DNA from: Candidatus Shapirobacteria bacterium
GTDB taxonomy: Bacteria; Patescibacteriota; Microgenomatia; UBA12405
Direction: 5' to 3'
DNA: 34,245 bases
Assembly (NCBI GenBank): GCA_023245435.1
Contig: JAHFKH010000004.1
Location: 3,714-37,958, forward strand
Below the pieces are notes generated by a model. It saw only the letters and a program-made list of their open reading frames with translations, did not search any database and was not told the origin of the DNA. This document shows positions 5,445 to 34,245 of the stretch, piece by piece (the first letter of the stretch is position 1; every line of letters starts with the position of its first letter). A program made the position numbers and the translations under genes.

Positions 5445-6006
5445 ACGAATTGCTCAAATAAATAGTTATTATTGTGGCCCGGCCTCGCTACAAATGTTGT
5501 TTAGTTTTTACAATGTTGACATTGAACAACAGCAAGTTGTCGATTATTTAGGTATTAACGACAAAATTATAAACTTTGGGACCACCATTCAAGAATTAGG
5601 TACTTTTGTCAAAGATTTATATCCCCAATATCAATTTTGGTACAAATTAAATTCTTCAATTACTGAATTATCACAAATAATAAACGAGTATAAATACCCT
5701 GTTGGCGTTGAGTGGCAGGGAGTTTTTGATTATCCCGACGAGGAAAAATCAGAAGACGAAGATGATGACCCAGGTCACTTGGCTGTCATTACTGAGATAA
5801 ATACCAGTAAAAATTATATTTATATTGCCGATCCGGATATACATTATGCCGGTAAAGACCGAAAATTTTCTATTCTTCAGTTTGAACGTCGTTGGTGGGA
5901 TATAAATGTTATTAACCATCAAGAAATTGATGATTATCACGGGCTTTTTTTTATTTCCCCTCAAAATATTTCCTTCCCCCCAGAATTTCAACTTCTCAAG
6001 CCTTAA
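5419..6006 (+). CDS. Papain-like cysteine peptidase, C39-like (Peptidase_C39_2-type)
   Basis: QINSYYCGPASLQMLFSFY (catalytic Cys context), PGHLAVITEI (His), IADPD (Asp). The ATG at 5419 is preferred over the track start 5263, which lies inside the ATP-grasp gene. 26-nt overlap with the upstream gene. Confidence 0.6.
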   Translation: MVNKFPNLKRIAQINSYYCGPASLQMLFSFYNVDIEQQQVVDYLGINDKIINFGTTIQELGTFVKDLYPQYQFWYKLNSSITELSQIINEYKYPVGVEWQGVFDYPDEEKSEDEDDDPGHLAVITEINTSKNYIYIADPDIHYAGKDRKFSILQFERRWWDINVINHQEIDDYHGLFFISPQNISFPPEFQLLKP

Positions 6007-9456: not shown

Positions 9457-9494
9457 ATTTATTACATTATTAATTATTAATTAAAAATAAAAAT

Positions 9495-15590: not shown

Positions 15591-16163
15591 TTATCTGCCT
15601 AAATTTTGTAAACACCATTCTAATTGTGCCTCTAATTCTAATAATTCTTTTGGTAATTTTTTGGTTACATTTTCAATTTCTTTTCTATCAAATCCTAATT
15701 GTTGCAAACTTAAAACAAGGTCATCCTCCAGTAACGGCAGACTATCACGCAAATCAAGTTCTCCCAACCCACCAATTTTAGATTTTAAGTCCACAATAAT
15801 TCGCTGAGCCGTTTTTAATCCAATTCCTTTAATTTTTTTAAAAAAATCAACATCAGCATCACCAATTGCCTTAATAATTTCTAAAGAACTTTTCTCTCCA
15901 ACTATTCCCATGGCTGTTTTTGGCCCAACCCCCGATACAGTTATCATCATTTTAAATAAATCCAGTTCTTCCACCGTTTTAAACCCAAACAAATTAATAC
16001 TACTATCATTCATTGAAGTGTAAATAAACAATTTTATTTCTTCTCCAATTCGTAATTCGTAATTTTTAATTGATAATTGAACTTCATAACCAATACCATT
16101 CACTTCGACTTCAATATAATTTCCAAAAATTCGTGAAACGGTTCCTCTCAAACTACTAATCAT
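15591..16163 (-). CDS. ruvA: Holliday junction DNA helicase RuvA
   Basis: MISSLRGTV..., GIGYEV, HhH motifs VSGVGPKTA and [12 protein letters not shown]; sits between ruvC and ruvB. Confidence 0.9.
16048..16068 (+). repeat. ATTCGTA heptamer array inside ruvA (encodes NYELRI)
   Basis: attcgta attcgta attttta. Confidence 0.7.
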
Positions 16164-16652: not shown

Positions 16653-16772
16653 AACCCATTATATACTACTAATAACTATAGGATATGCCAAGTTTTCCAC
16701 ACTTATCCACATTTTTTCCCATATTATTTTTAACCTTGATATTTATTATCAAATTCACCCATCTTACCAATA

Positions 16773-16807
16773 ACTCGTAATTGACAACTCGTAACTGTTA
16801 ACTGTTA
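16773..16807 (+). repeat. ACTCGTA/ACTGTTA heptamer array (5 units) abutting the murB -10 box
   Basis: actcgta attgaca actcgta actgtta actgtta; 29/35 identical to 22250-22284. Confidence 0.8.
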
Positions 16808-18886: not shown

Positions 18887-18927
18887 ATTCGTTATAATTC
18901 GTAATTTGTAATTTGTAATTCGTAATT
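18887..18927 (+). repeat. ATT(C/T)GTA heptamer array, intergenic
   Basis: attcgtt ata attcgta atttgta atttgta attcgta att. Confidence 0.8.
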
Positions 18928-18963
18928 ATTTTTCTCACTCTTATATTGTCTAAATTATTATTT

Positions 18964-18990
18964 AGTTTTAAGTTTTAAGTTTTAAGTTTT
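18964..18990 (+). repeat. AGTTTTA heptamer array, intergenic
   Basis: agtttta agtttta agtttta agtttt. Confidence 0.85.
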
Positions 18991-19021
18991 CAAAAAATAT
19001 AGGTTATTTTTTTGAAATATA

Positions 19022-21686: not shown

Positions 21687-21691
21687 CAATA

Positions 21692-21804
21692 TTTACCGCA
21701 ATTTACTAACCCAATATCCTACTTTTTACCGCAATATTTAACCAATACTCCGTAATATTTCCGCAGAAATTTACCTATTTTTAACATTCTATACATTTAC
21801 CGCA
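21692..21804 (+). repeat. Four iteron-like direct repeats TTT(A)CCGCA in a ~440-nt non-coding AT-rich region
   Basis: tttaccgca at 21692, 21725 and 21796; tttccgca at 21758; spacing 33, 33 and 38 nt. Confidence 0.7.
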
Positions 21805-22125: not shown

Positions 22126-24501
22126 TTAGCCTTTAACCACCAAATTTATCATTTTTCCCTCGACATATATTTCTTTTATTATGGTCTTACCCACTAACCA
22201 TTTCTTCACATTTTCTAATTCCTTTGCCATAGCCACAACATTTTCTTTAACTCGTAACTGTTCACTCGTAACTGTTAACTGATCTCTAACTTTTCCATTA
22301 ATTGCCACTGGTAACTTCACCACCTCGTCTATTAAGTACTTCTCCTGTGCCACCGGCCATGATGTGCTGTGTATTGAATTATTATTTCCCGTTTGGCTCC
22401 ACAACTCCTCGGTTATATATGGCGCAAAAGGGGCTAATAGCTTCAACAATACTTCTATCGAATTTTTATCTATCTTAATTTTTTCTAAATCGTTTAATCC
22501 TCCCATTAATTTAGCAATTGCTGTATTGTAACCAAATTCATTTATATCCTTGGTTAATCCAAATATTAGCTTGTTTATTACCAAATTACAATCATCATTG
22601 CTAGCAGATTTATTATTAATCTGATTAATTATATATTTCTCGAATCTATCTAAAAATCTTTTTACTCCCATTAAAGTATTTTCATTCCAAGCCATTGTTC
22701 CCTCAAATGGTCCCATAAACATCATATACATTCGCACTACATCAACTCCATATTTATCAGCCACTGTCTCAGGCACTATTACGTTCCCTTTTGATTTACT
22801 CATTCGATTATTATCGGGTCCTAATATTACTCCATGCGACATTCGCACCGCATATGGTTCAGGTGTTGGCACCACTTTTAAATCGTACAAAAACTGATGA
22901 ATAAATCTAGAATATAGCAAATGCAGCGTATTGTGTTCATCACCACCAATATAAACATTAACTGGCAACCATTTTTTAAGTGTATCAAAAGATGCCAGTT
23001 CTTTATTATTATGTGGATCACAATATCTCATAAAATACCAATCGCTACCTGCCCAGTTGGGCATGGTGTCAGTCTCCCTTTTGGCCACCCCTCCACACTT
23101 GGGACACGTACAATTTACAAAACTTTCAATTCGTGACAGTGGACTTAAACCATCATCAGTTGGTTCGTACGCTTCAACCTCAGGCAACACAATCGGTAGG
23201 TTTTCTTCCTTCTCAGTTACCCAGCCACATTTTGGACAGTTTATCATTGGTATTGGTTCACCCCAATAATGTTGGCGACTGAATATCCAATCGCGCAAAT
23301 GATAACTGCTCGCCCCTTCCCCTATTCCCTTATTTATTATTAATTCAATTGCTTTTTTAACTTCTTCAGCAACATTTACTTTCTTTTCATCATCATAAAC
23401 ATTAATAATTGGTAAATTAAATTTTTGGGCAAACTCCTTATCTCGCTCATCATGTGCCGGCACCGACATAATTGCCCCTGTTCCGTAACTGACCAAGACA
23501 AAATCAGATATCCAAATTGGAATTTCTTTGTTATTAATAGGGTTAATGGCATACAAACCCGAAAACACTCCTGTTTTTTCTTTATTTAATTCCGTTCTTT
23601 CCATTTCCGACTTCTTCCGTGCCTGTTTTACATATTCCTGTATTTTTTCTCGTTCCTCATTCGTAATTCGTAATTCGTAATTATCAATTATTCCATTTAT
23701 TAATTCATGTTCTGGTGCCACCACCATAAATGTCGCCCCAGATAAAGTATCGGGTCTGGTTGTAAACACCTCCAATTCTTTTATCTGAGATCTGACATCT
23801 GAGATCTGAAATCTAATCTTCGCTCCTTCCGATTTACCAATCCAATTAATTTGTGCTTGTTTGACCTTATCAATAAATGAGGTGTCTTTTAAACCATCAA
23901 TCAACCGATCGGCATATTTGGTTATTTTAACTACCCATTGTGAAATATTGCGTCGCGACACTTCACTCCCACAACGTTCACATTTACCATCAACCACTTC
24001 TTCGTTTGCTAAACCAATTTTGCAACTAGGACACCAGTTAATCGGCATTTCTTTTTTATATGCCAAACCAGCTTCAAATAATTTAATAAATATCCATTGC
24101 GTCCATTTGTAATATTGTGGATCAGTGGTATTTATTTCTCGCTCCCAATCAAACGAAAAAGCTAATTTTTTCATTTGATTTCTAAAATTATCCGTGTTTT
24201 CTTTGGTTACCTCTTGCGGTTTTCGCTTCATTTTAATCGCATAGTTTTCCGTTGGCAAACCAAATGCATCCCACCCCATCGGATACAACACATTGTTTCC
24301 CCGCATTCTCATAAACCGAGCATAAATATCTCCCCCCGTAAAAGAAAAAGCATGGCCGACATGTAAACCCGAGCCTGACGGATATGGGAATTCATTCAGC
24401 ACATACACTTTTGGCTTATCACTTTTATCATCCGCCTTATACAAATTTTTATTTTCGGCCCAAATCCTCTGCCACTTATCTTCAATTAACTTAAAATCCA
24501 T
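22126..24501 (-). CDS. leuS: Leucine--tRNA ligase
   Basis: FPYPSGSGLHVGH (HIGH), TTRPDT editing-domain motif, RMSKSKGN (KMSKS); full length, 791 aa. Confidence 0.97.
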   Translation of the reverse strand: MDFKLIEDKWQRIWAENKNLYKADDKSDKPKVYVLNEFPYPSGSGLHVGHAFSFTGGDIYARFMRMRGNNVLYPMGWDAFGLPTENYAIKMKRKPQEVTKENTDNFRNQMKKLAFSFDWEREINTTDPQYYKWTQWIFIKLFEAGLAYKKEMPINWCPSCKIGLANEEVVDGKCERCGSEVSRRNISQWVVKITKYADRLIDGLKDTSFIDKVKQAQINWIGKSEGAKIRFQISDVRSQIKELEVFTTRPDTLSGATFMVVAPEHELINGIIDNYELRITNEEREKIQEYVKQARKKSEMERTELNKEKTGVFSGLYAINPINNKEIPIWISDFVLVSYGTGAIMSVPAHDERDKEFAQKFNLPIINVYDDEKKVNVAEEVKKAIELIINKGIGEGASSYHLRDWIFSRQHYWGEPIPMINCPKCGWVTEKEENLPIVLPEVEAYEPTDDGLSPLSRIESFVNCTCPKCGGVAKRETDTMPNWAGSDWYFMRYCDPHNNKELASFDTLKKWLPVNVYIGGDEHNTLHLLYSRFIHQFLYDLKVVPTPEPYAVRMSHGVILGPDNNRMSKSKGNVIVPETVADKYGVDVVRMYMMFMGPFEGTMAWNENTLMGVKRFLDRFEKYIINQINNKSASNDDCNLVINKLIFGLTKDINEFGYNTAIAKLMGGLNDLEKIKIDKNSIEVLLKLLAPFAPYITEELWSQTGNNNSIHSTSWPVAQEKYLIDEVVKLPVAINGKVRDQLTVTSEQLRVKENVVAMAKELENVKKWLVGKTIIKEIYVEGKMINLVVKG
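22250..22284 (+). repeat. ACTCGTA/ACTGTTA heptamer array inside leuS (encodes QLTVTSEQLRV on the coding strand)
   Basis: actcgta actgttc actcgta actgtta actgatc. Confidence 0.8.
23659..23682 (+). repeat. ATTCGTA heptamer array inside leuS (encodes NYELRITN)
   Basis: attcgta attcgta attcgta att. Confidence 0.85.
23783..23817 (+). repeat. ATCTGAG heptamer array inside leuS (encodes RFQISDVRSQI)
   Basis: atctgag atctgac atctgag atctgaa atctaat; reverse complement of the 33956-33983 family. Confidence 0.85.
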
Positions 24502-24608: not shown

Positions 24609-24962
24609 ATGTCATTAAAAATCCTCATTGTCGAAGATGATTTATTTTCCGCCAATATTTATCAAAACCACTTAACCAAAGCTGGTTATATTTCCAAAAT
24701 TGCCACAGATGGTCGTACCGCCTTGGATTTAGCCGATTCATTTCACCCCGACTTAATAATTTTAGATTTAATTCTTCCCAAAATTGATGGTTTTACTCTA
24801 ATTCATTTATTTAAAAAAACTCCAATTATTATAGTTTCTAATCTCGATCAAGATGACGACATTGAAAAATGTCTTAGTACCGGCGCCAAGCTGTTTATCA
24901 CCAAAGAATCAATTAACTACGACAAATTAATCTCCGAAATCAATAAATTACTCGATCACTAA
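24609..24962 (+). CDS. Stand-alone response-regulator receiver domain (CheY-like)
   Basis: KILIVEDD, DLIILDLILPKIDG (phospho-acceptor Asp context), no output domain; TATACT 8 nt upstream of the ATG. Confidence 0.85.
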   Translation: MSLKILIVEDDLFSANIYQNHLTKAGYISKIATDGRTALDLADSFHPDLIILDLILPKIDGFTLIHLFKKTPIIIVSNLDQDDDIEKCLSTGAKLFITKESINYDKLISEINKLLDH

Positions 24963-25661
24963 ACTCCCATTAACATCAGTCCTTAACACCGACGTCCCCA
25001 CTCCCAACACTCGTCCCAAAACTTCGCTACTCGGGTGACCATAATTATTTTTACCTACCGATACGACCGCAAAATTCGCATTTATCCGCTGCAACCACGC
25101 CTGTGAATTCCCCGTTTTTGATCCGTGGTGCGACAACTTAACTACATCAATCGGCTCATTTATACTATATATAATACTGTTCTCAACCAACTCATCAATA
25201 TCACCCGTAAATAAAATCGATTTATTGGCAAATTTTAATATTCCTACTACCGAATCATTATCCCGCGGGACCAATCCCACCAGGGGAAAAATCACCTCAA
25301 ATTCAAAATTATTACCCTTGACCACATCACCCTTAAACAAATCCCCCAACCCCACTATTTTTTTAATTTGATAATATTTTTTTAATTTTTCCAAAGCCCC
25401 ACTGTGATCATTATCCAGATGCGACAACATTACTATTTCCAATTTTTTATCCCCTAGCGGCAAATTTTGATCCAAACATTTTTCAATTCCCCCGGCAACT
25501 GGCCCAGTATCGATTAACATTTGAAAATAACCAGAAGTTACCAAAGCCGCATCACCTTGCCCCACGTTACAAAAAATTACTTTAACTTTATTACTCGGAA
25601 TTACCACTATCCAACCCCACATCAAATATATCAATCCCAATAAAAAATATTTTTTATACAT
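24948..25661 (-). CDS. comEC: ComEC metallo-beta-lactamase domain encoded as a separate ORF (own N-terminal TM helix)
   Basis: VIFCNVGQGDAALV, MLSHLDNDHSGAL (HxHxDH-type), LSHHGS; 8-nt overlap with the upstream ComEC membrane ORF. Confidence 0.8.
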   Translation of the reverse strand: MYKKYFLLGLIYLMWGWIVVIPSNKVKVIFCNVGQGDAALVTSGYFQMLIDTGPVAGGIEKCLDQNLPLGDKKLEIVMLSHLDNDHSGALEKLKKYYQIKKIVGLGDLFKGDVVKGNNFEFEVIFPLVGLVPRDNDSVVGILKFANKSILFTGDIDELVENSIIYSINEPIDVVKLSHHGSKTGNSQAWLQRINANFAVVSVGKNNYGHPSSEVLGRVLGVGTSVLRTDVNGSLVIE

Positions 25662-26478
25662 GCTTTTTTCTCATATAATAACCAACTCCTATTACATAAC
25701 TGGCCACCATCATCCAAACATTAAAACTAACTCTAACTTGAGCCATACTCGGCATTGATAAAATTTGCACCGTTTTTTCAATATATACCAACAACGGATA
25801 AAGTAACCACCAAATTGGATGAAAAATAATTCCTAAAAAGCCCAACACCGTAATCGTTTCCACCAAAAATAAAGTCATTAAATTTGACAAAGGGGCCATT
25901 AAACTTAAATATCCAAATTTAAAGGCCAATAATGGTAATAACCACAAATTTACTCTTAAAGTTGTTTTGATTACTCCCTCATTTGGATTTTGCGACACTG
26001 CCATAAATGCCAAAAATGACATCCAAAAACTTACTGAACTCAAAACTCGATAATCAGCCACTATCATTATCATCAAAACTAAAATTATCATTCGTAAAAA
26101 ATTTGTTTTTCGCCCCAACAATTGTCCCAAATACATAATTGTCACCATTATCACTGCTCGAGTCGCCGGAATTTGCCAACCGACCAAACTCACATAAAGC
26201 CAACCTATGGTAATTCCCAAAATTATAGACTGTTTTCGACCAAGCCACTGAGCCAACAATTCAATTAATCCTTTGACCACAATCATCAAATTTGAACCAG
26301 ACACTACCAAAATATGAATCAAACCCGTCACCACCATTTGGTTATAAAATTCTTTTGAAATTCCCGACACGTCACCCCACAACATTGCTACCAACATCGA
26401 TGCCTGCTGATTTGGTAAATATCTCAAAACTTCATAAATCAATCTTATCTTTAATATTTCCATAAATTTTGTCCCCAA
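25654..26478 (-). CDS. comEC: ComEC 'Competence' integral-membrane channel domain (no N-terminal OB/DUF4131 region)
   Basis: ASMLVAMLWGD....TGLIHILVVSGSNL motif plus multiple TM helices; start uncertain (26478 or 26463). Confidence 0.8.
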   Translation of the reverse strand: MGTKFMEILKIRLIYEVLRYLPNQQASMLVAMLWGDVSGISKEFYNQMVVTGLIHILVVSGSNLMIVVKGLIELLAQWLGRKQSIILGITIGWLYVSLVGWQIPATRAVIMVTIMYLGQLLGRKTNFLRMIILVLMIMIVADYRVLSSVSFWMSFLAFMAVSQNPNEGVIKTTLRVNLWLLPLLAFKFGYLSLMAPLSNLMTLFLVETITVLGFLGIIFHPIWWLLYPLLVYIEKTVQILSMPSMAQVRVSFNVWMMVASYVIGVGYYMRKKHV

Positions 26479-26758
26479 TTCCCGAGACTTCCTTTAACTG
26501 TTCCTTGGAACTAAATTTACCCACACTATTTCGATAATCAACAATTCTTTGAGCCATTTTGTCACCAATTGACGGCAAATCAACCAATTCCCGCACCGTG
26601 GCTTGATTGATATTTATCTTTCCCATCATCTTTTGCTCTGCTTTAACTATGGCCACTTGTTGTTCCTTAAAATTATCAGCCAATTTAACTCGCAAGCCCA
26701 CAATCATTAACACCACCCCCACGACTATTACCAAATCCCCCCAATACCGTTTAAACAT
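26432..26758 (-). CDS. comEA: ComEA-type DNA receptor (TM anchor plus helix-hairpin-helix)
   Basis: ININQATVRELVDLPSIGDKMAQRIVDYR...LKEVSGIGDKIYGNI. The Met at 26758 (MFKRYWGDLVIVVG) is preferred; the track start 26803 lies inside a GC hairpin. Confidence 0.8.
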   Translation of the reverse strand: MFKRYWGDLVIVVGVVLMIVGLRVKLADNFKEQQVAIVKAEQKMMGKININQATVRELVDLPSIGDKMAQRIVDYRNSVGKFSSKEQLKEVSGIGDKIYGNIKDKIDL

Positions 26759-26792
26759 AATCAAATAATACAACTTAATATCAATATTTATA

Positions 26793-26812
26793 GGCGGACA
26801 CATCGGTCCGCC
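26793..26812. repeat. GC-rich hairpin ggcggac-acatcg-gtccgcc in the divergent comEA / surface-cluster spacer
   Basis: Perfect 7-bp GC stem in AT-rich DNA. Confidence 0.5.
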
Positions 26813-33110: not shown

Positions 33111-33617
33111 GTGTTGTGTCTTCCTCCCCCTCCGGCTACCAACACTTTGACCAATATTGGTCCTATTGTTTTGGCTCCTACCTTATCTCAAGACAAAAAT
33201 TCCCAAACCTTAATTACTTCGGGTCAAAGTGTTCCCAACTCCACCGTTAATATTCAAATTTTTCAAGTCGAAAATAAACCTCAACTCATAAAACCGGTTG
33301 AGGCTTTTTCTTTACCTCAATTTTCCACTACTACTGATCAAAATGGTAATTTTAGTTTAAATTTACCCACCCAATATTCTTCCGAGTATCGATATTATGC
33401 TACCGTGATTACTCCAAAATCATTGGCTTCTGCCAAATCAAATATATTGTGGTATCAAAACCCAGGCCAATTTAACTACCTCCCCTTCATTTTATTTTCA
33501 ATTGCTGTCATAATTATGTTGCTAGTTATTTTTTATAAAAAACATAAAACCGCTCCAATTATTTACCATTATTATCCTGCTTTGCGGCCTCATTATTGGC
33601 CTCGTTCTCTCTTCTAG
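33111..33617 (+). CDS. Ig-like-repeat surface protein fragment with a C-terminal TM helix; the frame is open back to 32859 with no ATG/GTG/TTG
   Basis: Two similar beta-domains (LIIFGYTSPNSRVEL..DKDGYFIF ; TSGQSVPNSTVNIQI..DQNGNFSL), then LPFILFSIAVIIMLLVIFYKKHK. The first canonical start (GTG at 33111) falls between the domains. Confidence 0.5.
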   Translation: MLCLPPPPATNTLTNIGPIVLAPTLSQDKNSQTLITSGQSVPNSTVNIQIFQVENKPQLIKPVEAFSLPQFSTTTDQNGNFSLNLPTQYSSEYRYYATVITPKSLASAKSNILWYQNPGQFNYLPFILFSIAVIIMLLVIFYKKHKTAPIIYHYYPALRPHYWPRSLF

Positions 33618-33957
33618 GTCAATAATTTTTCAAGGCAAAGCCACCTCGACCAATTCCAGTGTTGTCAGTGTCCAAAATTCTTATTTATTTGGCTCACCCC
33701 TAACTGCCAAAGCCGATGGTCAAGAAAAAATCAGATTAACCATATTTTTATTAGATTCTCGGGGACTAGGGGTTAGTAATCAAAAAGTAACCATCATTGC
33801 TCCTCCTACACTGGTTTTGACCAACATTCAAGCCATTACCGATGATACCGGCAAAGCTATTTTTGATTCGACTTCTAATACCGCCACCACCTATCAAATT
33901 TCCGCCTCCACCGGCGATCAAATTCTCCCTCAAAAAGTTAAGATAACCTTTTATTGA
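33535..33957 (+). CDS. TM-anchored Big_1-like (invasin/intimin-type Ig) domain protein with no canonical start codon
   Basis: Frame open 33526-33957: LQLFTIIILLCGLIIGLVLSS then SVQNSYLFGSPLTAKADGQEKIRLTIFLLDSRGLGVSNQKVTI...TDDTGKAIFDSTSNTATTYQISAS. Absent from the ORF track because only ATA/ATT-type codons precede the TM helix. Confidence 0.45.
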   Translation: MKNIKPLQLFTIIILLCGLIIGLVLSSRSIIFQGKATSTNSSVVSVQNSYLFGSPLTAKADGQEKIRLTIFLLDSRGLGVSNQKVTIIAPPTLVLTNIQAITDDTGKAIFDSTSNTATTYQISASTGDQILPQKVKITFY

Positions 33958-33983
33958 TCTCAGATGTCAGATATCAGATCTCA
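33956..33983 (+). repeat. GATCTCA/GATGTCA heptamer array
   Basis: gatctca gatgtca gatatca gatctca; overlaps the TGA stop of the preceding ORF and precedes the four-helix-bundle gene. Confidence 0.85.
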
Positions 33984-34015
33984 GAAAAACAAAAAATGAT
34001 GATAAAGTTAATGTA

Positions 34016-34245
34016 GTGGAAGATAATAAATTCGAGAAACTAAAAGTATGGCAACTAGCACACGAATTAACTTTAAATATATATAAAATAACTAAAACAT
34101 TTCCTCAAGATGAAAAATATTCTTTAGTTGATCAAATCAAAAGATCATCAAGTTCTGTTCCAACCAATATAGTTGAGGGTAATGAAAGGAAAACAAGAAA
34201 CGAGTACGTTCAATTTTTATATATTGCAAAAGGCTCAATTGCCGA
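34016..34245 (+). CDS. Four-helix-bundle protein (23S rRNA intervening-sequence protein / Avd-like family), 3' end cut by window edge
   Basis: (GTG)EDNKFEKLKVWQLAHELTLNIYKITKTFPQDEKYSLVDQIKRSSSSVPTNIVEGNERKTRNEYVQFLYIAKGSIA matches the family pattern FxxLxVWQxA..L...Y..T..FP..E.Y.L..Q..R...S...NI.EG..R....E...FL.IA.GS. Confidence 0.85.
   Translation, partial: MEDNKFEKLKVWQLAHELTLNIYKITKTFPQDEKYSLVDQIKRSSSSVPTNIVEGNERKTRNEYVQFLYIAKGSIA

Follow-up and report, generated by a model that had tools for sequence, protein, structure and literature searches.

Short heptanucleotide arrays in loops of LeuRS and RuvA and in spacers of a Shapirobacteria-like bacterium, and the turnover of their units among relatives

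In a 34,245-nucleotide (nt) stretch of DNA from Candidatus Shapirobacteria bacterium, hereafter the window, we examined short head-to-tail arrays of 7-nt units that lie in frame within the genes for leucyl-tRNA synthetase (LeuRS, leuS) and RuvA (ruvA) and also in intergenic spacers. The results showed that a genome-wide process produces and keeps such arrays in spacers and genes alike. Comparison with relatives indicates that the position of an array persists across the clade while its unit is exchanged far more rapidly than the gene sequence around it. The arrays are probably heptanucleotide microsatellites of the kind known as short tandemly repeated repetitive (STRR) DNA or long simple sequence repeats (SSRs), which would be kept in genes under filters of stop avoidance, reading frame and loop tolerance, and would then turn over in place and be shuffled by recombination.

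Genes were defined from a list of open reading frames (ORFs) with their translations, and arrays were detected with Tandem Repeats Finder (TRF), by exact period-7 detection with shuffle controls, and with a looser period-7 detector with simulations. The within-genome counts refer to the 34 kb of this genome that the window covers. Among the ~34 genes of the window, only leuS (three arrays) and ruvA (one array) contained arrays, and five or six further arrays were located in spacers. The host genes and arrays are as follows (aa, amino acids).

22126-24501, minus strand: leuS, leucyl-tRNA synthetase, 791 aa, host of three arrays (ORF and translation; match to Thermus thermophilus LeuRS, E = 1e-201)
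15591-16163, minus strand: ruvA, 190 aa, host of one array (Pfam RuvA_N and HHH_5; matches to RuvA entries of the PDB)
23783-23816, minus strand: leuS site 1 array; coding strand AGATTTC AGATCTC AGATGTC AGATCTC AGAT, read as (I)RFQISDVRSQI
23649-23691, minus strand: leuS site 2 array; perfect core 23659-23682, (AATTACG)3.4, read as NYELRITN
22247-22281, minus strand: leuS site 3 array with a 14-nt superunit; CAGTTAA CAGTTAC GAGTGAA CAGTTAC GAGTTAA, read as QLTVTSEQLRV
16047-16079, minus strand: ruvA array, 33 nt or 4.7 units; CAATTAT CAATTAA AAATTAC GAATTAC GAATT, residues Q29-I39
16770-16807, no strand assigned: spacer array ruvC-murB, TAACTCG/TAACTGT family (TRF); exact 18-mer common with leuS site 3
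18892-18930, no strand assigned: spacer array wecG-mreB, AATTACG family, in the same orientation as the ruvA and leuS copies
18955-18992, no strand assigned: spacer array (AGTTTTA)3.9 (TRF, exact and looser detection)
33956-33985, no strand assigned: spacer array, AGATCTC family, in the orientation opposite to the leuS copy; exact 17-mer common with leuS site 1
9466-9493, no strand assigned: spacer array rplJ-rplL, AT-only heptamer of the ATTATTA/AATAATT family (TRF and looser detection)

TRF reported leuS site 1 as ATCTGAG x4.6 (23783-23814), site 2 as ATTCGTA x3.4 with 100% match (23659-23682), site 3 as the 14-mer TTAACTCGTAACTG x2.4 (22247-22280), and the ruvA array as AATTCGT x2.6 with 100% match (16047-16064). 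The arrays reach past their perfect cores, as in the 33-nt RuvA segment Q29-I39, and at site 1 a weaker periodicity goes on 3' of the five AGATNNN units. TRF and translation agreed with the original prediction in that the three leuS arrays and the ruvA array exist, lie in frame, and are translated as it had proposed. Its coordinates were exact for NYELRITN (23659-23682, LeuRS residues 274-281, in the editing domain after APEH) and off by 1-4 nt for the other three peptides: RFQISDVRSQI, placed at 23783-23817, was found at 23782-23814 (LeuRS residues 230-240); QLTVTSEQLRV, placed at 22250-22284, was found at 22249-22281 (residues 741-751, C-terminal domain); and the NYELRI of RuvA, placed at 16048-16068, was found at 16047-16064 (RuvA residues 34-39). 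Translation of both genes likewise bore out that NYELRI is present in LeuRS and RuvA and is encoded by one repeat unit, (AATTACG)n, in each; its occurrence in two proteins would be a by-product, because the same DNA unit is read in both. The two genes had been called essential, which applies to LeuRS; RuvA is not essential in model bacteria.

The window contained six exact period-7 arrays (0.27 expected) and none with periods of 8-15, and the looser detector found eight arrays, compared with 0.1 in simulations. Five matches to ATTCGTAATTCGTA with at most one mismatch were obtained, when 0.03 were expected. The 18-mer common to leuS site 3 and the ruvC-murB spacer and the 17-mer common to leuS site 1 and the 33956 array each had two matches with none expected. 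A chance origin of the window arrays is excluded. With 2.6-5 copies per array, head-to-tail, the arrays show the 7-nt unit, the tandem excess and the several families that characterize STRR-type repeats; the families in the window are AATTACG (three arrays), AGATCTC (two), TAACTCG/TAACTGT (two), AGTTTTA, and ATTATTA. There were no inverted array pairs in the window, and no window array displayed a significant fold (z-scores -1.7 to +0.8).

The host is, as judged from its LeuRS, a Candidate Phyla Radiation (CPR)/Patescibacteria bacterium of the Microgenomates group, Shapirobacteria-like: the nearest non-self homologue was 74% identical to the window LeuRS, and the named homologues were Candidatus Shapirobacteria, Woesebacteria or Microgenomates. 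The GC content was 33-41%. For comparison, we used 114 Shapirobacteria-like loci (1.27 Mb) around relatives of LeuRS and RuvA and, as a control set, 45 Firmicutes loci (0.8 Mb) selected around relatives of the same two proteins. The contigs with L-numbers are loci of relatives, taken from assemblies in NCBI, JGI, ENA and Logan. The Shapirobacteria-like loci contained 117 lag-7 arrays (9.25 per 100 kb) and 0-13 arrays at lags 5, 6 and 8-11 (densities of 0.1-1.0 per 100 kb), and the Firmicutes loci had 0.5 period-7 arrays per 100 kb. The distribution was patchy, some loci having 7-8 arrays in 7-14 kb and many relatives none. About 30 unit families were found among the relatives, led by AATTACG (16), AGATCTC (14), AAAAATT (11), AATAATT (10), and AAAATTG (7). 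Since AATTACG and AGATCTC head this count, the two main units of the window are also the commonest in the clade.

When the arrays of 32 LeuRS genes were mapped onto an alignment (32 lag-7 hits versus 0-4 at other lags), they clustered at eight places, the three sites of the window and five further ones, given here in window residues.

~26: 1 genome (L015, two hits)
229-245: 10 genomes
272-287: 4 genomes
427: 2 genomes
496-501: 3 genomes
625-633: 3 genomes
672-681: 3 genomes
743-756: 5 genomes

Alignment to relatives and to T. thermophilus showed that all three window arrays fall in segments that vary between LeuRSs, as had been predicted. The first beta-hairpin of RuvC is one more hot spot, at which the window RuvC has a short repeat-free form, and arrays of other families are present in the syntenic spacers of L230 (mreB-wecG and murB-ruvC). 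The RuvA segment that separates GYEV from GEE was exactly 33 nt long (4.7 units) in all relatives with an array there, and the arrays were drawn from at least seven families, with the following units and peptides.

AATTACG: NYELRI
CAGATCT: ISDLRSQ
GAATTAG: GIRNEEL
CAAACTT: TSNFNLQ
AAGATCA: KDQRSK
AAATGAC: QCQMT

Nearest neighbours, judged outside the RuvA segment, had the same family in 31 of 51 cases (0.28 expected at random), and family switches were seen even at 88-92% protein identity. In the RuvA of the nearest neighbour of the window, with an identity of 88% outside the segment, (CAGATCT)4 stands where the window has AATTACG. Between the window and L162 the nucleotide identity was 0.81-0.86 in the flanks and 0.42 in the RuvA segment. 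The expectation that the repeat-encoded residues are specific to one lineage was not supported, as the same sites hold heptamer arrays, often of other families, clade-wide. Because relatives hold different repeats at the very same loops, the arrays appear to be tolerated passenger segments with a fast turnover.

The original prediction had regarded the arrays as tolerated insertions of repeat DNA into loops. This agreed with the alignments at LeuRS sites 1 and 2, which are, by length comparison, net insertions and the only two cases that simple insertion fits, but not at LeuRS site 3 or in the RuvA segment, where the length is kept. Site 1 is 3 aa longer than in repeat-free close relatives and in T. 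thermophilus; in the AlphaFold2 (AF2) model of the window LeuRS (mean pLDDT 80.8), it takes in the last part of strand 223-233 together with the hairpin loop (residues 234-241) before strand 242-247 (LEVFTT), ahead of LEVFTTRPDT. Site 2 is 9 to 11 aa longer than in repeat-free relatives and 7 aa longer than in T. thermophilus, and the model places it in the editing domain, where residues 274-280 form the loop that joins helix 266-273 to helix 281-294, so that the structure mapping puts both sites in loops. Site 3, which is 2 aa longer than in T. thermophilus and equal in length to most relatives, was modelled as strand 737-745 and the next turn of the C-terminal domain. The RuvA array lies at the end of beta3 and in the loop to beta4 of domain I (AF2). 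The RuvA segment is 2 aa shorter than that of E. coli RuvA, whose FYEL aligns with the NYEL of the window, which, by the refuting condition attached to the original prediction, rules it out as an insertion; it is only 2 aa longer than in repeat-free CPR relatives with the WVGKKNY-TEGQE form. In L031, a perfect (CAATTCG)4.6 array occupies LeuRS site 1 without any length change. Since the segment length is unchanged in these three cases (RuvA, LeuRS site 3, and site 1 of L031), the native sequence is, on the alignments, overwritten or homogenised in place and not added to.

Repeat-free short forms were present among relatives at LeuRS sites 1 and 2 and at the RuvC hairpin, with length differences that were not whole units, whereas RuvA and LeuRS site 3 showed replacement and no empty site. 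In relatives, LeuRS sites 1 and 2 are occupied by repeat DNA of another sort as well, likewise in frame: palindromic elements that resemble miniature inverted-repeat transposable elements (MITEs). Such DNA was observed in L002, L004, L005, L006, L008, L012, L017, L020, and L045 and in the further LeuRS relatives P0003, P0020, P0024, and P0048; it comprises short palindromes AGAGACG...CGTCTCT, read as SRDVxxxVST, and MITE-like elements of ~75-100 nt, read as ...SSSH...AACGRK... or KNPLSAEADISLQ...GQKGF.

Every base of an array is read in all three codon positions, so a strand codes only if none of the seven cyclic triplets of the unit is a stop. After de-duplication, 68 of the 106 distinct arrays were genic and 38 intergenic, and the units were distributed as follows.

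Units free of stops on one or both strands: 51 genic, 5 intergenic
Units in which each strand has a stop: 17 genic, 33 intergenic

Per base, the array density was ~4-fold higher in spacers. About 88% of the bases are in ORFs, and with a division of 51 to 5 the open-unit arrays are therefore spread roughly as coding DNA is, while units that contain stops are for the most part kept out of genes. When a gene does have an array of such units, a single base is altered in the copy whose phase would be dangerous, and these variants appear at every third unit. Thus, the third unit of leuS site 3, GAGTGAA, has G where T would make an in-frame TAA; GAATGAG in the RuvA of L082 and AATGAAG or TAATGAG at site 3 of L022, L012 and L015 are stop-avoiding variants of the same sort. 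All genic arrays had either the stop-free orientation or variants exactly at the would-be stops, their net length change was divisible by three, and they were confined to a few permissive loops and hairpins of LeuRS, RuvA and RuvC. The single-base variants suggest a force that keeps the units alike and purifying selection that acts against it.

Between closely related strains, entire arrays are replaced. L134 and L135, two independent assemblies called 99.9% identical, differed at 107 columns in an alignment of 12,347, with 96 of the differences in two array patches (5689-5750 and 9032-9120 of L134; octamer units CCTGTCAG/CTCATCAG/CTTATCAG). In the RuvC patch, L134 has an octamer array (CCTGTCAG/CTCATCAG) and L135 a heptamer array (AGATCTC/AGATGTC), and in the second patch, in another ORF, the roles of octamer and heptamer are reversed. 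Both patches are in frame and have ~28 nt of diverged non-repeat sequence on one side. The RuvC allele of L136 is that of L134. The polymorphism among relatives that the original prediction had looked for was thus found, in the form of replaced cassettes rather than of heptamers being present or absent. The contig pairs L162/L163 and L164/L165 were identical or differed only at scaffold gaps and so gave no information on polymorphism, the differences in gene length being due to gene calling. In L087, L090 and L092-L094 (at least 99.4% identical), the RuvA loop that bears the heptamer array in the window is occupied by one, two or three copies of a 51-nt repeat, VGAHGNAPVQSGCGEIS, which holds the palindrome GGGCGCAT...ATGCGCCC.

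Other repeats were observed in the same setting. In 22 kb of L033 (Woesebacteria) there are seven exact arrays of period 8. A palindromic, GC-rich mini-element of ~21 nt, gccatgCCTGCCGGCAGGcag, is dispersed, with copies at L230:3100-3125, L033:16659 and 18440, L138:8148, L021:5880 and 10529, L018:8566, and L002:8153. In L230 it lies in frame right after AAATTAC within the RuvA heptamer array and adds AMPAGRQ; it occurs twice inside octamer arrays in L033 and inside LeuRS in L021. An IS608-like TTAC target would fit the L230 copy, whereas other copies are in non-TTAC contexts. On the contig L161, whose RuvA is the closest (86% identical), a gene at 1648-2286, directly downstream of ruvC, encodes a Y1 (IS200-like) transposase (Pfam Y1_Tnp, 37 bits, cutoff 23), which has no counterpart in the window.

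The explanation that we favour, microsatellites filtered by selection, would operate as follows. Arrays would arise and be homogenised by slipped-strand mispairing or misaligned repair with a preference for 7 nt, and their alleles would be shuffled between strains by homologous recombination. Genic arrays would survive only with stop avoidance, a maintained frame and loop tolerance, and the peptides NYELRIT, SDVRSQI and QLTVTSE would be passengers without a function of their own.

Several results weigh against this explanation. The units AATTACG and AGATCTC/AGATGTC recur in genomes whose LeuRSs are only 60-70% identical, and the same canonical units are found in Nostocales and in viral contigs of 23-67% GC, for which local slippage alone fails to account. 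Genic and spacer arrays of the window share exact 17-18-mers made of non-identical units, which looks like copying. In a comparison of the window with L084, the array had an identity of 0.91 and the flanks 0.65-0.69, so that the array outconserves its flanks. Length-neutral overwriting is not what simple expansion gives, and in the few near-identical contig pairs there was no heptamer copy-number polymorphism of +/-7 or +/-21 nt, with wholesale swaps instead.

Heptanucleotide repeats have been known since 1990 and have been called the commonest class of long SSRs since 2007. The STRRs of heterocystous cyanobacteria, whose heptanucleotide sequences Mazel and co-workers reportedly described in 1990, resemble the present arrays in the 7-nt unit, the short head-to-tail arrays and the several dispersed families, and the AATTACG unit is common to the CPR window and the Nostocales, where it is read in NYELRIT-repeat ORFs. 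They differ in that the window host belongs to the CPR/Microgenomates and is not a heterocystous cyanobacterium, that the present arrays recur, in frame, at hot spots of conserved housekeeping enzymes, that genic arrays outnumber intergenic ones (68 versus 38), STRRs being mainly intergenic, and that the window has none of the inverted hairpin pairs that are frequent among STRRs. The units described as canonical, STRR1-3, were absent from the unit census of relatives. Heterocyst-forming cyanobacteria are said to have STRRs within their RNase P RNA gene as well, in work attributed to Vioque (1997), and these reportedly represent heptamer arrays tolerated in a structurally variable element of an essential gene; unlike that RNA gene, which has no reading frame, the window arrays must avoid stops and keep frame. 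The small dispersed repeats (SDRs) of Nostoc punctiforme, which Elhai and co-workers (2008) are said to have described as hairpins of 21-27 nt, reportedly lie within tandem heptamers. By that description, the 21-nt mini-element of the relatives would resemble SDRs; it is a secondary element, distinct from the arrays.

The taxonomic spread of AATTACG was judged from a peptide search and from viral contigs in IMG/VR. A search with (NYELRIT)6 returned 130 short ORFs, and the named matches were Cylindrospermopsis, Nostoc, Anabaena, Desmonostoc, Sphaerospermopsis, Tolypothrix and Pseudanabaena, together with two non-cyanobacterial ones, a WWE3 (CPR) bacterium and a Tannerella. Among IMG/VR contigs, 64 (with 23-67% GC) contained (AATTACG)3, frequently in inverted pairs that should fold into hairpins.

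In the literature, STRRs are usually 7-bp repeats of unknown function in filamentous cyanobacteria (PMC2670836). The TAACTGA direct repeats common to marine Beggiatoaceae, cyanobacteria and Bacteroidetes, for which no transfer mechanism is evident (MacGregor 2015, PMC4679880), are one or two bases away from the TAACTGT/TAACTCG family of the window. Within ORFs, TAACTGA occurs only in its stop-free orientation, encoding LSVISYQ, and mostly in hypothetical proteins or at protein termini, and the Beggiatoaceae copies are mostly just upstream of start codons (PMC4679880). The window arrays, in contrast, are in internal loops, and the LeuRS, RuvA and RuvC positions are conserved across the clade. 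As summarised in later papers, Mrazek et al. (2007) found heptanucleotides to be the most abundant class of long SSRs and over-represented among 5-11-nt repeats (PMC4679880, PMC4692102), proposed polymerase slippage with a 7-nt footprint (PMC4679880), and reported units divisible by three to be the likeliest in coding regions; G-rich heptamers are under-represented there (PMC4692102). Unlike in that account, a unit not divisible by three is here common in coding regions. The pervasive, rapidly evolving tandem repeats of Borg elements, which are reported to create disordered protein regions (PMC9879509), are alike in adding peptide segments and unlike in that the present arrays are short, of 7-nt units, and in chromosomal housekeeping genes. 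We found no report of heptamer arrays in CPR genomes, and none of recurrent in-frame hot spots in conserved enzymes.

Closest to the original prediction is the possibility that canonical heptamer arrays are written or replaced by an active process with sequence specificity, the genic arrays being true insertions of, or replacements by, preformed repeat DNA. We consider this rather unlikely. Candidates for such a process would be mobile or templated systems, for instance a Y1 transposase or a reverse transcriptase, or else ectopic conversion of genes by master copies. Several of the points raised against slippage would be in its favour: the identical units in loci, genomes and phyla that are unrelated, with high-GC viral contigs among them; the exact mixed-unit 17-18-mers in genic and intergenic arrays; the array that outconserves its flanks in L084; the whole cassettes swapped between 99.9%-identical strains; and the overwriting of native sequence at constant length in some arrays. 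So would the Y1 transposase gene adjoining ruvC in the closest relative, L161, and the insertion of the 21-nt palindromic mini-element within arrays. However, there were no conserved flanks, terminal inverted repeats or target duplications around the arrays, which have no defined ends and fade into degenerate units. A Pfam search of the window for a causal gene gave housekeeping and competence genes and one Avd-like fragment only; the lack of a transposase or reverse transcriptase is a weak argument, as several ORFs had no Pfam match. The L134/L135 swaps include the ~28 nt of differing non-repeat sequence beside the array, a stretch that in RuvC still encodes a homologous peptide, as would be expected of divergent alleles that recombination has shuffled. 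Both swaps, moreover, are reciprocal, from heptamer to octamer at one locus and the reverse at the other, which argues against a strain-specific writer. A discrete mobile element (MITE or transposon) was rejected, as the conserved flanks, terminal repeats and target duplications were lacking.

It is more doubtful still that CPR bacteria, Nostocales and some of their viruses share an unrecognised sequence-specific system for writing and rewriting heptamer arrays (AATTACG, AGATCTC and others). If this were true, the system could be enzymatic or recombinational, and the loops of essential proteins would be cassette-like hypervariable sites.

The arrays could also be kept for a function, as binding sites or structures in DNA or mRNA, as uptake-like tags, or as useful flexible protein loops. 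Unit sequences are conserved across distant genomes, spacer arrays are found near start codons (16770-16807 ends 13 nt before the murB ATG), and comEA and comEC adjoin leuS. A control of translation or stability has been proposed for the TAACTGA repeats near start codons in Beggiatoaceae (PMC4679880). We nevertheless regard a function as improbable, since the same loop works with unrelated units, octamers, palindromic elements, one to three copies of the 51-nt repeat, or no repeat at all; single units are barely enriched outside arrays (five singletons versus ~3 expected); the window arrays have no significant fold; and many close relatives have no arrays. A single motif for DNA uptake was rejected: CGTAATT occurs 12 times in the window (3.1 expected), seven of these inside arrays, and isolated AGATCTC showed no excess. 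Hairpin or cruciform formation was rejected as a general property, the z-scores not being significant, although inverted AATTACG pairs would form hairpins in viral contigs of other hosts.

A role as phase-variable contingency repeats, with the slippage of one heptamer switching leuS or ruvA off and on, is very improbable. The 7-nt unit does shift the reading frame, and heptanucleotide repeats reportedly drive phase variation in Haemophilus (PMC8262952). However, the hosts LeuRS, RuvA and RuvC are housekeeping proteins and not products of surface, virulence or other dispensable contingency genes, the loss of LeuRS would be lethal, and the arrays, of 2.6-5 units, are short and contain interruptions. 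All the homologues examined were in frame, which argues against phase variation, and the differences between strains, seen in few close pairs, keep the frame. Chance similarity or an assembly artefact, for which nothing but the AT-rich composition speaks, can practically be dismissed in view of the shuffle controls, the many independent assemblies (NCBI, JGI, ENA, Logan) and the intactness of all ORFs.

The CPR/Patescibacteria are a new host phylum for heptanucleotide repeats, with a unit in common with the Nostocales. The loops of LeuRS, RuvA and RuvC that carry different units in different genomes constitute a natural experiment, and because these are the same loops of conserved proteins, turnover can be measured against a well-aligned background. 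The arrays show direct signs of a selection filter, in stop avoidance, frame and loop tolerance, as well as wholesale exchange between 99.9%-identical contigs. They create spurious peptides common to unrelated proteins, inflate the apparent divergence in CPR marker-gene alignments, and mark insertion-tolerant loops that are usable for protein engineering.

Some further features of leuS and the window were observed. The window LeuRS is short, 791 aa compared with 878 in T. thermophilus. The alignment shows nothing that corresponds to residues ~593-637 of the T. thermophilus enzyme, and confidence in the AF2 model is lowest at residues 560-574; for these reasons, the leucine-specific insertion appears to be reduced or absent. 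At 24948-26803, comEA (HHH domain), comEC and the metallo-beta-lactamase (MBL)-fold part of ComEC directly adjoin leuS, and the relative L231 has the same synteny of leuS and competence genes. The array at 33956 is followed just downstream by a gene of the 23S rRNA-intervening-sequence/Avd-like four-helix-bundle type (34016-34243, plus strand; PF05635, E = 1.7e-28), cut by the window end; Avd-like genes often accompany diversity-generating retroelements. Next to the same array, an ORF at 33111-33617 is followed by an open frame to a stop at 33957 with no good start codon until 33817; the region 33111-33957, which had no Pfam match, may be one frameshifted gene or two genes.

The plus-strand GC skew was strongly negative across the whole window (1-34245), from -0.08 to -0.41 in 2-kb windows. 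It holds whatever the gene orientation, a very large strand asymmetry, and an unusual disparity in strand composition has reportedly been described for one complete Microgenomates genome (PMC7143001). Directly downstream of tRNA-Pro(CGG) and tRNA-Arg(CCT), the long AT-rich spacer before leuS contains an imperfect tandem repeat with a 33-nt unit (AATATTTACCGCAATATTTAACCCAATATCCT x2.6, 21688-21773).

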